The notes under the pieces were generated by a model. That model made no database searches. It was given only the letters and a program-made list of their open reading frames with translations, and was not told the DNA's origin. Position numbers and translations under genes: made by a program. Positions 3,705 to 53,124 of a stretch of 64,000 nt of DNA are shown piece after piece (within the stretch, counting starts at the first letter, position 1; the number at the start of each line of letters is the position of its first letter). Source of the stretch: a virus; IMG/VR virus record IMGVR_UViG_3300025423_000009, positions 32,001-96,000 of that record, one strand, 5' to 3'.

Positions 3705-4918
3705 TCAACGTTGCCAGCCTTTAACCACGTCTGGACTGAAGTTAGCTTTGGAGAACTCCAGTCGATCGACCAGCTTGACGGTTCCGGCCTTGGTTCCGAC
3801 CACGTAGCCTTCCTGTCCGGTTCGTTCGTATCCATCCTTGGTCTTCAGAAACGTCGAGATTCCTCCAAGACGATTTAGCTGAGCAATCAATTCCTTCTTG
3901 GCTCCCACCAGTTGAGCCTGAAGCTTGAATGCCTTGACGATGTTTGACAGATTCTCTCTGGAGAAGAAGTCGAACGTGATCTGACGTCGTGCATTGACGG
4001 CCTGCTTACCCTTCTCGGTCTTCTTCGAAGCCACTTCCCGATCGAAGCGAGCGTTCATCCAGGCCACGAGCTCCGTGGCATGCTTCTGTGGATCATCGAT
4101 CTCTCGGCCCGCACGAACCTTCGAATTAGCAAAGGTCTCGATGGTCTGAGCCAGATCAGGATTGGATTGCAAGGCTTTTAGAATCGAGGACGGAATGGAC
4201 TTGAGAGTGGCCTCGGCTTCCTTGAGAGTCGCATCGACTTTACCGAGGTCTGCGGTGGATGATACCTTCTCCGTGCCGATACCCTTGAGATCCGCCGTGC
4301 GCCACCAGATCGAAGGAATTCGCTTAAACGATTTGGTGTCTACTCCCGGAGAAGCATGGAGTGCACTCAGCTTACCGGTATATGACGTATGAAACACCAC
4401 GCCGATCTTGGCGGCCATGATAGCCTTGGCTTCCGATGAATCGAGTGGAACCGCGTAAACGATCGTGTTTGGATGAAAGGTGACGTAGTCTCGACCTTGA
4501 ATCTTCTGACGCTTCAGAGTGTCGGACGTGAAGAGCAAATCTCCTTGAATGATTCCTCGAATGCCAAGCTTGGAGAACTCGATCAGAGCGACCTTCATCT
4601 TGTTATTGAGATCTCCGGCCTCGATGTGATCGTCGATGTCCTGTGGAGTCTTATACACCTCTGGAACTTTATTGAAGATCGACTTCTTGGCCACGAAGAA
4701 CTTACCATCGGCTGGATCGGTACCACAGAAAATTGCCGGCGCGCCATCCCACTTGACCGTGACGGAAGCCGTGGCTCCTTTTCCGGTCAGAGAGTCACGA
4801 ACCGCACGAAGAGCCTGAATGGCCGACTTGGCGCCCTCGATACCACCATAGAGGACCTGATCCTCCACATGAGTTAGATGTCCAGAACCTTCGAGAATGA
4901 ATTGCTTGAAAGTCATCA
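3705..4918 (-). CDS. ATP-dependent ligase/capping-fold nucleotidyltransferase (DUF6267-like)
   Basis: Motif I KWDG, III QGDLLF, IV EGYVV, V KLVD. Start approximate (MMTFKQFILE). Confidence 0.7.
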
Positions 4919-4923
4919 TATCA

Positions 4924-5826
4924 TCATTCGGCTGAGTCAGAAGCTTCAATCTTTACTAGCGGCTTGATAGTCTTGGAAGTGTATCGCTCGATCGAGACGT
5001 CCGTGGCCTTCACGGATTTAACGGCCACGATCGTTCCCATCTTCGGATAGTTTTCAACGTTGTGAAGGAACACGACCTCGTGATTCTTGAAGTAATGATC
5101 GTAAGCGATCTTTCCAAACTTCTCCTCGATCTTCTGAAACTCTTTGGGAAACTTAGCTTTCAGCTCAGCGATGATTGATCCAGGAATCTCGGAAGTGACT
5201 TCGAATCCACCACGATTGGCCAGATCGATCAATGCGCGCTCGACTTCGATGGTCGAGAAAGTACCTCCGAGCTTAAAGTCATAAGCGTGTCCGGACTTCT
5301 TAACCTTCACGGCCTTGAGTTCATACTCGGCTTCCGGAAGCATGATGTCTTTTCCACCCGAAGATCCGCCACCTAAAGTCGCGTAGTCATACATGAAGTA
5401 GAACAAGACTTCACCGGGACCGATTCCTTTGACTCCATAGTTGTATAGTCTTGCAAATGATTTGCCGCTTTCGAGCTCGGAGTTTTTCAGTTCAGCCAAT
5501 GCGTGATTGAACTCTTCCTTCTTAATCGTCTTGCTCTTTAAAGTCTTAGATATATGGAACTTTGGAAAGTAGTACTTGCAGAAGAGGTATTGAATCTCAC
5601 GCTTGTTCTTCAGAGTCTGAAAGTCCGTGCCGGTTAGATTGAGTTGAGTCACGTGTTCGGCGCGATTGAGGAATTCTTTATCTAGTTTGTCGACGTCAGA
5701 CTTCTCAGAAGTGGCCTCGTTGATGATGACCTCCGCACGATTGATGAATGCTATGTCAAGCCCATACGTTTCAGGATCGATCGATTTGAGGCAATGGCCG
5801 CGAAATTCATTGAGCGTCTTCTTCAT
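4924..5826 (-). CDS. PD-(D/E)xK nuclease-like protein
   Basis: GPGEVLF...GKDI...EYELKAVK matches the E...D...ExK arrangement. Confidence 0.55.
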   Translation of the reverse strand: MKKTLNEFRGHCLKSIDPETYGLDIAFINRAEVIINEATSEKSDVDKLDKEFLNRAEHVTQLNLTGTDFQTLKNKREIQYLFCKYYFPKFHISKTLKSKTIKKEEFNHALAELKNSELESGKSFARLYNYGVKGIGPGEVLFYFMYDYATLGGGSSGGKDIMLPEAEYELKAVKVKKSGHAYDFKLGGTFSTIEVERALIDLANRGGFEVTSEIPGSIIAELKAKFPKEFQKIEEKFGKIAYDHYFKNHEVVFLHNVENYPKMGTIVAVKSVKATDVSIERYTSKTIKPLVKIEASDSAE

Positions 5827-51381: not shown

Positions 51382-52302
51382 TTATGAGATCGGCACTTCA
51401 TGCACCTCAAAGTCAAATTTCTCTTTCGTATAGATCTTGGCGCGCTCGATGCCGTGAGTCAGCGTGTAGTTCTTCTGGCCCTTTCTCGAGAGATCGTCGG
51501 CGATGTCGTATACGGTCGTTGAACGTTCATCCTTGGTCTTTCTGAGACCACGGCCGATCGACTGAAGGACTCGCACCTGTGACTTGGTCGGAGAAGCAAA
51601 GACGATGTTGTGCAAATTCTTGATGTTGATTCCGGTCGAGAATGTACCAAACGAGGCGATGATGACGGAGCCTTCCTCCTTCTCCACCAGGCCGCGGATC
51701 CGTTCACGCTCGTCGGCATCTACCTCTCCGGAGACGAAGTAGACTTTTCGCTTGGTGTCCTTCAGCTTCTTCTTGACGGCCTCGAAGAGAGGCTCTCCAT
51801 GCTTCTCGACAAACTGATACAGAATCAGACTATTGCCCTTGAGATCCGCGACCAGGTTCGTGATGAAGCGATTGCGTGGCTCATATGACGTCAGAAAGTC
51901 GAGCTCGTCCTGATAATCGAGGGAATCGTGCTCCTTGCGAATTGCCTCGGGATACTTCAGCACGAGCATGTGAATCTTCAACTGAGCCAGAACATCCGCG
52001 TCGATGAGCTCATGTGTTGTCGTCACCTGATAGGTCGGACCGAAGCATCCTTCGAGCACCAGCTTATTGACCTTGGCATCCTCACCTCCCGGAAGCGTAC
52101 CGGTCGTTCCGATGCGGAACCAAGCGTTCTTGAGCCAGCTCATGATCTTGGTCAGTGAAACGGCCTTGAACAGATGTGCCTCATCGCCAAAGACACCACC
52201 GAACTGCTCGAACCACTTGGGCCCCATGGTAACGGCCGACTGCCAGGTCGTGATGATCACCGGTGGATCTACTTCTACTTTTTCAATCTTTCGAATTTTC
52301 AT
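51382..52302 (-). CDS. uvsW: UvsW helicase, C-terminal half
   Basis: ITTWQS, DEAH, GTTGT, GTFSTGINI, QSIGRGLR. Confidence 0.9.
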   Translation of the reverse strand: MKIRKIEKVEVDPPVIITTWQSAVTMGPKWFEQFGGVFGDEAHLFKAVSLTKIMSWLKNAWFRIGTTGTLPGGEDAKVNKLVLEGCFGPTYQVTTTHELIDADVLAQLKIHMLVLKYPEAIRKEHDSLDYQDELDFLTSYEPRNRFITNLVADLKGNSLILYQFVEKHGEPLFEAVKKKLKDTKRKVYFVSGEVDADERERIRGLVEKEEGSVIIASFGTFSTGINIKNLHNIVFASPTKSQVRVLQSIGRGLRKTKDERSTTVYDIADDLSRKGQKNYTLTHGIERAKIYTKEKFDFEVHEVPIS

Positions 52303-52365
52303 AGAATACTCTACCTAATTTCCAGATCGAAACATCAATTGTTTCAGGTTTCATAAGTTTTGAAA

Positions 52366-53124
52366 TTATATCAAATCATCTTTTAACGTAAGGTCTTTCG
52401 CTTTCTTCTCACCAAAACGTGTTGATACTATATCATTCGGTGATAGTATTCTAATTGAACCATCTTCCAAAAAAACCTTTACTTTTTCTTTTTTAGGATC
52501 TTTATCTTCTCCACCCATCAAAATGCTTATTGAAGAGTCAGCGTCGAAAGATGCATCTTCAGATGAATAATTTGAAAAATCATTTTGCATTTGAAGAACT
52601 AAACTTCGGGTAGGAACGATGACGATTGCCTTCTTCGAAGAACCTTTGAGATGATTCAGATACCATCGTAGAAGCTGATAGATGATCAGAGACTTACCAG
52701 AACCGGTCGGGGAAACCAGAAGGATCTTCTGAAGCTTGATCGCACGATCTATGGCATCTTTCTGGTAATCCCTTAGCTCGAGCGGCTTATCGTCCGCCCC
52801 GGTGGCCGCATAAAGGCCTTCAGACGCTTCGGATTCAGCTTCTGAGAGGTCGGGAAGCCACAGCCCTGGTGCCAGTTCAAGTTCGTGTTTCCGTGAGTCC
52901 GCGTACTTCTGAAGGTGATGGAGCAGACCGGCCGGAAGAGTCTGATTACGAAGATTGAACAAATGTATACGCCCATCCCATTGCCGACGCTTGAAGGCCG
53001 GAGAGAACTGATATCCGGCCGCAAAGAACGAGAAGAACTCAGATAGCTCCTGAAGGACTCCGGAATCCTCACAGGTCACGCGAAGGTGTGCCTGATCGAT
53101 CGAATTGACGTGTATGATGGCCAT
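52366..53124 (-). CDS. uvsW: UvsW helicase, N-terminal half ending in a Hint-like fragment
   Basis: YQFSPAFK...WDG.I.LF, LRDYQ, SPTGSGKS, IVPT. Confidence 0.9.
   Translation of the reverse strand: MAIIHVNSIDQAHLRVTCEDSGVLQELSEFFSFFAAGYQFSPAFKRRQWDGRIHLFNLRNQTLPAGLLHHLQKYADSRKHELELAPGLWLPDLSEAESEASEGLYAATGADDKPLELRDYQKDAIDRAIKLQKILLVSPTGSGKSLIIYQLLRWYLNHLKGSSKKAIVIVPTRSLVLQMQNDFSNYSSEDASFDADSSISILMGGEDKDPKKEKVKVFLEDGSIRILSPNDIVSTRFGEKKAKDLTLKDDLI

Follow-up and report, generated by a model that had tools for sequence, protein, structure and literature searches.

In Aeromonas phage Aeh1, nrdA is split by the HNH endonuclease gene mobE (Friedrich et al. 2007; Crona et al. 2010, PMC3045599). The tails that the mobE insertion added to NrdA are essential for the activity of the split enzyme, and the authors of the 2010 study speculated that such tails might be degenerate intein remnants and might occur elsewhere too (PMC3045599). 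The fractured genes described by Dassa et al. 2009 (PMC2677866), by comparison, encode eight enzyme types, with UvsW not listed, and carry complete split inteins. Replication genes split in association with homing endonuclease genes (HEGs) are also known from T4 (gene 39/60, mobA) and Aeromonas phage 25 (gene 43A/43B); the review that covers them treats the reassembly of HEG-split enzymes as an open question and gives uvsW as a target of T4 SegE (Edgell, PMC2988022). In the gp41-1 intein, residues 60-110 form a second C2-related unit, and the strands at the end of the intein N-part (IntN) and at the start of the C-part (IntC) carry a network of charges that has been proposed to initiate the association of the fragments (bioRxiv 10.1101/546465). 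Here, we describe a uvsW helicase gene that is split in a window of 64,000 nt (the whole stretch analyzed, to whose positions all coordinates refer) of the IMG/VR record IMGVR_UViG_3300025423_000009, which is 117,947 bp long with direct terminal repeats at its ends. The two halves end and begin with short peptides that are homologous to the Hint (intein) fold and lack its catalytic residues, and these peptides probably act as a non-covalent clasp. Full-text literature searches found no paper pairing UvsW with split inteins and nothing on truncated, non-catalytic Hint ends as assembly modules.

The split gene lies on the minus strand. The open reading frame (ORF) of the N-half (52366..53124, 252 aa) reaches GGEDKD and then continues into a 43-aa C-terminal tail (PKKEKVKVFLEDGSIRILSPNDIVSTRFGEKKAKDLTLKDDLI, or PKKEK...KDDLI; 52369..52497) before its TAA stop (52366..52368). 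The ORF of the C-half (51382..52302, 306 aa) begins with a 12-aa N-terminal head (MKIRKIEKVEVD; 52267..52302) followed by PPVIITTWQS. Both are in the same frame and are separated by a gap of 63 nt (52303..52365) with an in-frame TGA and TAG beyond the N-half TAA, all three stop types being present between the ORFs. The break is therefore where the original prediction had placed it, between GGEDKD and PVIITTWQS. Pfam recognized UvsW_N, ResIII, and DEAD in the N-half and Helicase_C in the C-half, and the read-through UvsW model matched T4 UvsW (2oca) with an E value of 2e-36. The native part of the N-half (residues 1-172, 52609..53124) holds the UvsW_N domain and helicase motifs I and Ia, and the C-half proper with its stop (51382..52266) holds the TTWQS strand, motifs II-VI, and the RecA2 domain, making this a UvsW superfamily 2 helicase whose UvsW_N domain and motifs I-VI are spread over both pieces. 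The C-half has its own ATG with a purine-rich stretch (AGGT/GGTAGAG) upstream.

Two other ways of explaining the interruption were rejected. Stop-codon recoding or read-through cannot account for the split, since the three in-frame stops are of different types and no single recoding opens the frame. A self-splicing intron was dismissed as no Rfam intron or other RNA family was found over 51800-53000 on either strand (E<=10) and the insert encodes conserved peptides and the remnant of an HEG described below. The gap was also searched for a terminator, with none found, and its sigma-70 promoter-like matches were on the wrong strand and at chance level.

The relationship of the two peptides to inteins was supported by several lines of evidence. 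A profile built from the tails matched bona fide inteins with whole-library E values of 1e-8 to 1e-5, and each of these matches lay within the region that Pfam assigns to Intein_splicing/Hint, where the N-terminal splicing part reaches its C-terminal end (P0188, P0214, P0223, P0296, P0300, and others). The tails were also compared by hhalign with seven aligned UvsW-like N-fragments carrying genuine split inteins at motif II (DE|C-L-x-x-D-T...T-G-N-H...), giving a probability of 97% and an E value of 9.7e-11 over 41 columns, with residues S228-P-N-D231 of the window placed on the intein T-G-N-H. The tail thus corresponds to the block-B end of a split-intein N-fragment without the TxxH His, as had been predicted. 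Simpler searches did not reveal this: Pfam was blank for the isolated tail at E<=10, phmmer with the tail against PDB sequences returned only chance-level matches to small heat-shock proteins, and the tail profile gave no significant match to PDB sequences, with clostridial repeat hairpins on top and the gp41-1 intein at an E value of 0.47. The Hint homology is clear only with a profile search of 1.8 billion proteins, hhalign, and the fold search.

Structure prediction with AlphaFold2 was performed on the read-through chain (96-row alignment), where the predicted local distance difference test score (pLDDT) was 88 overall, ~89 in the tail, and 82-91 in the head strand, being low only in the linker, and on the isolated 80-residue module, with a pLDDT of 79 (91-94 in the tail). 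Over both models, the tail was predicted to form five beta strands (pLDDT ~89-94) and the head one long strand (pLDDT 72-91). Nearly all matches listed by Foldseek for the isolated module were inteins or Hint domains (TMq 0.48-0.71). When 48,161 PDB chains were searched with VIA-align, the top 28 were all inteins or Hint proteins (Z 9.1-4.1), followed by unrelated chains at Z<=3.6. The best phage match was gp41-1 (Z 8.7, 30% identity, chain residues 40-104 of 127), and in the PolII mini-intein residues 70..142 of 170 were aligned, only the central part of the intein being covered. In endonuclease-bearing inteins (PI-PfuI, PI-TkoII, TliVMA), the aligned range spans the endonuclease domain, which places the linker of the module at the classical site of HEG insertion or intein splitting. 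The structure alignments map the head beyond the split site, which supports the proposed likeness of the C-half start to the strand that opens a split-intein C-fragment. Tail and head are predicted to make up a paired beta structure that spans the split site, their contacts being deduced from these alignments. Sequence profile, hhalign, and fold search agree on membership in the Hint superfamily.

The module is very unlikely to be an active intein. The tail (P-K-K-E-K-V-K) directly abuts GGEDKD, without a block A or a position-1 nucleophile, which is Cys/Ser or, in classes 2/3, Ala, and the ~60 residues found upstream of the tail-equivalent segment in a real IntN are missing. The tails carry D, E, or Q at the column of the block-B His, and blocks F and G, the terminal (His-)Asn, and the +1 Cys/Ser/Thr are all lacking, the head being followed by P-P-V-I-I-T-T-W. 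Direct reading hence agrees with the original prediction on the missing block A Cys/Ser and terminal His-Asn and extends it to the +1 nucleophile. The Hint fold is also incomplete, with 55 aa in tail plus head versus 127-186 residues in the matched mini-inteins. Catalytic residues are lacking in 17/17 aligned tails. With no nucleophile, no block-B His, no blocks F/G, no Asn, no +1 residue, and only 55 residues, splicing would not be expected, and the ends of the two halves would not form a functional split intein, as the catalytic blocks are absent. The 55 retained residues overlap the part of the intein fold that is proposed to start association, with only the mutated block-B position kept from the catalytic parts. 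In real split inteins, the strands flanking the split site are reported to be the first to touch as the two fragments come together.

It had been suggested that splicing was lost at this locus and the strands were kept. The Hint-derived tail and head devoid of any catalytic residue fit this proposal, but the loss of splicing at the locus itself is unproven: no full intein, split or contiguous, was found at this UvsW site among the relatives, and the positions of genuine UvsW-like split inteins are different ones, namely motif II (DE|C) and the site following TGTLDGSQ. The locus would be explained equally well by an HEG that moved out of a fractured gene and carried along only the adjoining intein segments. 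Genuine split-intein N-fragments were seen in the UvsW-like helicases P0020, P0188, P0200, P0239, P0250, P0252, and P0298, and in P0011.

The 63-nt gap that had been noticed within an AT-rich junction is present, but it is no mere spacer. Its bases can be aligned one to one with the final ~75 nt of the HNH HEGs in the relatives L128, L117, and L112. By translation, BLASTP, and DNA alignment, a stub of 23 codons (MKPETIDVSIWKLGRVFYENSKD*; 52283..52354, minus strand) was identified that overlaps the start of the C-half by 20 nt, as intact HEGs do. The stub ends with WKLGRVFYENSKD and the HEG of L128 with WKLGRKRYENKKN, with 9/13 identical residues in the BLASTP alignment (WKLGR..YEN.K, E 6e-5). 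L128 is a syntenic metagenomic relative with the same neighbors (uvsY-like gene upstream, end of gp23 nearby), in which a tailed N-half, a 279-aa HNH HEG, and a C-half beginning MRIKKIETVEV follow each other. The HEGs of L128 and L117 match phrog_655 “homing endonuclease” (E 1e-26 to 1e-28) and have the HNH signature. The alignment of the gap together with the residual 23-codon ORF indicates that an endonuclease was once present and has been almost wholly deleted, the gap being the 3' stub of its gene. At another locus (L119), the HEG seen in L097/L101 has been deleted precisely, leaving a gap of 21 nt as the junction. Outside the window, a six-frame match that spans one TAA identifies a 198-aa PHROG-655-type HNH gene (G000:C1:25023-25649, equal to L205:1531-2127, minus strand) between nrdB and nrdA, the position of mobE in T-even phages.

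Comparison with an intact 505-aa UvsW (P0033) shows that the cassette was acquired recently. The C-half is 97% identical to this protein over its full length, with a single mismatch in the 293 residues from PVIITTWQS on. In a residue-by-residue comparison, residues 1-172 of the N-half were 100% identical, and 23/37 residues differed over positions 173-209 (52498..52608, minus strand), between identical flanks. This patch of N-extein, imported with the cassette, has wording (“...S/I-I-L/I-M-G/S-G...K-x-P”) that is common to other split forms and not found in intact UvsW. Insert and co-conversion tract take the place of P0033-type residues 173-212, with the tract on the N side only and the recombination borders given at the protein level. 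The diverged span coincides with the AT-rich island (52270..52650, no strand), which comprises patch, tail, HEG stub, and head and marks the imported DNA. The composition profile gave a GC content of 0.29-0.36 over ~52270-52650 versus ~0.52 in the flanks, in line with the junction first described, and ~0.3-0.4 exactly across the patch. Neither tail nor head is present in the intact UvsW proteins P0033 and P0034; both came in with the insertion. Most of the donor-like cassettes are found in genomes with a GC content of 0.27-0.37 (0.44 for the L117 genome). The best relatives in a single metagenome scan were 77-85% identical. A one-sided co-conversion tract within a low-GC island is what gene conversion usually leaves behind when it is initiated by an endonuclease and the donor has a lower GC content. 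The cassette is a recent acquisition in an otherwise intact gene, presumably by gene conversion from an AT-rich donor.

The window is one of many such loci. A search with the N-half retrieved other N-halves of ~250 aa with an identical end point and related tails (42-63% identity overall). The pattern “MKIxKI...TWQ” was found at 44 loci in IMG/VR DNA, 28 of which are UvsW-like C-halves with the head and split site of the window, and M-K-I-x-K-I is invariant in 5/5 aligned C-halves. Where the upstream half was on the contig (23 loci), it was an N-half with a tail of one of two related classes, A and B. In the gene order known from fractured genes (Dassa 2009), most split loci have an ORF of 237-282 aa between same-strand halves, mostly of the HNH type (L128, L117, L112, and L081 among others); the window, L119, L120, and L090 have lost the HEG. 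The HEG ORF overlaps the end of the tail by 26-59 nt in class-B-type cassettes and not at all in those with class-A tails, and overlaps the head by 11-23 nt, except in L105, where there is no overlap. Class-B tails (L081:4588-4740, L093:2288-2440) carry an extra conserved extension, D-D-R-W-L-x-x-x-K-K, past the Hint-like part, and in L081-like loci the start of the HNH gene overlaps the coding sequence of this extension by 38-41 nt. The inter-half ORFs of L001, L097/L101 (249-253 aa), and L105 (396 aa) had no Pfam or PHROG assignment. Those at L001:1502-2248 (249 aa), L097:3006-3764 (253 aa), and L105:4110-5297 (396 aa) may be unclassified homing endonucleases, and the first two start in a way that looks like GIY-YIG by eye (YTYLIGW…YYGVR and TYLYIKQ…KYFGKT).

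Similar tails occur at other sites and in other genes. The helicase is in three pieces in L097 (2199-5749), L119 (718-2743), and L101, with a second Hint-like tail (…LDPNE.IDLVNK.QKKA[KR]DITENDDID…) after the “...EIRRIMEFCKED” position. In L097, this second tail is followed by a second HNH gene (4551-5429) and a third piece of 100 aa starting ME-LLLLLRSVHFSTGINI; in L119, both endonuclease genes are gone. When the profile of 17 tails was run against 1.84 billion cluster representatives, 273 proteins were matched at E<=1e-3. Reading of their C-termini by eye showed many UvsW N-halves, as well as the helicase middle pieces P0242 and P0282 and pieces of DNA polymerase III alpha (P0193, P0220, P0233) that end in a truncated tail, before which a Hint domain is undetectable. 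P0233, a small middle piece, has the last part of a real intein C-fragment at its start and a truncated tail at its end. P0190 is a contiguous UvsW of 516 aa whose tail and head are joined in frame via a two-residue turn (…AKDLCEGDEIEG-LG-ISNVEKIYTK-IVCSTWQS…), a possible end state of the cassette after loss of the endonuclease; a second-site tail forms the end of this protein as well. In the class II ribonucleotide reductase P0225 (1164 aa), a tail-like match (863-903) leads directly into a GIY-YIG domain of the SegE type (899-984) in one ORF, which may represent either an intein containing a GIY-YIG endonuclease or a cassette that has become fused.

The genome of the window has a single match to the tail profile. 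When 50,697 phage records of GenBank were queried by tblastn (E<=0.01), neither of two tail segments had a match, and blastn against GenBank phages gave only cyanophage helicase segments of ~66% identity; so far, the tail family is confined to uncultured viral contigs. Synonymous divergence (dS) in the tail is well below that in the helicase body (L119 and L101 share 98% identity in the tail and 73% in the body), which implies that the cassette moves between diverged helicase genes. Taken together, the truncated 55-aa module is an old and widespread mobile cassette in itself, associated with HEGs of at least two kinds, several sites, and several host genes.

The following model is proposed for the locus. 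A free-standing HNH HEG flanked by two short intein-derived coding segments would have entered uvsW at a surface loop of the first RecA domain (RecA1), where its third strand is connected to its fourth, by gene conversion from an AT-rich donor phage that dragged along 37 donor N-extein codons. Later, most of the HEG would have been deleted down to the 23-codon stub, leaving the gene as two cistrons. The tail, with the block-B strands, and the head, with the first strand of the C-fragment, would make up roughly the central half of the Hint fold around the split site. In the absence of any catalytic element, no peptide bond would form between the halves; instead, tail and head would pair as a small beta module beside the break, which would keep the two parts of the helicase aligned for formation of the split RecA1 sheet. 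The anatomy of the locus, its Hint homology and catalytic loss, the HEG stub, the recent import, and the conservation and mobility of the family are observed, and on these grounds a non-covalent clasp of tail and head is the functional reading that we favor, and a probable one. That the module binds in trans and that the helicase needs this binding is inferred from purifying selection, the predicted fold, and the fused P0190. The ratio of nonsynonymous to synonymous substitution (dN/dS, pairwise NG86) is mostly 0.1-0.4 in the tails, tail pattern and predicted fold are kept between the two classes at 14-30% identity, and the module has persisted after HEG loss in the window, L119, L120, and L090 as well as in P0190. 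It is quite possible, and we propose it tentatively, that the half-Hint is an autonomous, chemistry-free heterodimerization module that HEGs carry as flanking luggage for landing in essential phage genes without killing them, with UvsW (two sites), DNA polymerase III alpha, ribonucleotide reductase, and others as hosts.

Several observations weigh against the clasp, and some of them would fit a situation where tail and head are functionless passengers of the endonuclease cassette and the halves meet through the native interface of the split RecA1 domain. In Aeh1 NrdA, the one precedent that has been studied, the tails are dispensable for the association of the fragments, being required for a later dimerization step (PMC3045599). 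The low dS of the tails indicates young and mobile cassettes, and part of the tail similarity would thus reflect inheritance through recent spread and not constraint. The downstream piece at the second site (starting ME-LLLLLRSVHFSTGINI) has no MKIxKI head. The dN/dS values come from only 43-52 codons, and the cassette of the window was acquired too recently for selection on this copy to be read. The pairing predicted by AlphaFold2 was obtained from a single chain with a read-through linker, a set-up that favors pairing, and the net charges of tail (about +2) and head (about +1) are not opposite as in classic split inteins. However, passengers would not be expected to show dN/dS mostly at 0.1-0.4, to keep the same hydrophobic/charged pattern and a confidently predicted fold between tail classes that share 14-30% identity, or to be retained once the HEG is gone or the halves are fused, and we consider this explanation unlikely though deserving of attention.

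Other explanations are harder to reconcile with the data. The module could serve the endonuclease itself, by providing HEG expression signals or translational coupling or by destroying the target site and so making the carrier immune. The HEG ORFs do overlap heads (L105 excepted) and class-B-type tail ends, the insertion necessarily breaks the intact target, and the one-sided co-conversion fits endonuclease-driven homing. This is improbable, as it is the amino-acid sequence that is conserved, together with a Hint-like fold, class-A tails have no HEG overlap, the module outlasts the HEG, and any insertion would give immunity, a conserved peptide being unneeded. Nor does it seem likely that the split simply inactivated the gene and left two ORFs as a very young pseudogene. 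uvsW is non-essential in T4, the cassette is recent with flanks 99.7-100% identical to the intact relative, and open frames here prove nothing about selection; however, in dozens of diverged split loci both halves have remained open and retain every helicase motif, dN/dS of the body is ~0.1-0.2 where dS is measurable, and the C-half has its own start codon and purine-rich upstream stretch. Despite the Hint homology and the existence of atypical inteins whose split fragments are very short, it is very improbable that the halves are still ligated by an unconventional split intein of minimal size. Only ~55 residues are left of the ~125-140 in matched mini-inteins, position 1 has no Cys/Ser/Ala, S-P-N-D stands for T-x-x-H, there are no blocks F/G and no terminal Asn, and P-P-V follows the head. 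We give least credit of all to an assembly or sequencing artifact, since dozens of independent contigs show this architecture; the three different in-frame stops, the coherent 231-nt insert with a composition of its own, the HEG stub, and an identical N-half protein on record from a 14,117-nt contig also speak against it.

The non-covalent clasp hence remains our preferred reading. The 2010 speculation that tails rescuing HEG-fragmented genes can be intein remnants now has sequence and fold evidence, and uncultured aquatic phages harbor a large mobile family of rescue modules of this type instead of a single curiosity. If binding in trans holds true, peptides of ~43 and ~12 residues would be natural, non-reactive relatives of the association domains of split inteins; they might be used as small heterodimerization tags and would allow intein fragment association to be studied without the chemistry. 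Annotation pipelines will label such genes as pseudogenes or “hypothetical” halves. The window also offers a snapshot of the HEG life cycle, with invasion and one-sided co-conversion followed by decay of the endonuclease, and an almost isogenic intact allele for comparison.

Set against the known systems, the locus shares with the T4 39/60 and phage 25 43A/43B pairs the encoding of a T4-like replication protein as two polypeptides, but an intein link of the extensions of those proteins is unreported. It resembles the fractured genes gp41-1, NrdJ-1, and IMPDH-1 of Dassa in its layout (N-piece with intein N-part, HEG, intein C-part with C-piece, all on one strand), in affecting DNA replication/repair genes of aquatic phages, and in the intein lineage to which tail and head are homologous (30% structural identity to gp41-1, NrdJ-type IntN among the profile matches). 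Those genes, however, carry competent split inteins of ~125-140 aa that ligate the exteins, whereas only ~55 aa without catalytic blocks are found here. The genuine UvsW-like split inteins (P0020, P0188, P0200, P0252, P0298; P0011) reside in the same host protein family, and the ends of their IntN (...T-G-N-H-K-V-x-T-x-N-R-G-W...D-E-L-T-E-x-D-[DE]-I) align with the tail of the window at the hhalign probability given above; they differ in lying ~35 and ~85 residues downstream and in having block A (C-L/F-x-x-D-T) and the block-B His. The closest parallel is Aeh1 nrdA, where a free-standing HNH HEG likewise splits an enzyme gene inside a functional domain, leaving a C-terminal tail on the first piece and an N-terminal tail on the second, with no RNA or protein splicing. 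In contrast to Aeh1, the HEG in the window is reduced to a stub, and the UvsW tails, known here from sequence, are demonstrably homologous to Hint domains, are predicted to fold as half a Hint domain, and belong to a large mobile family with several sites, host genes, and kinds of endonuclease.

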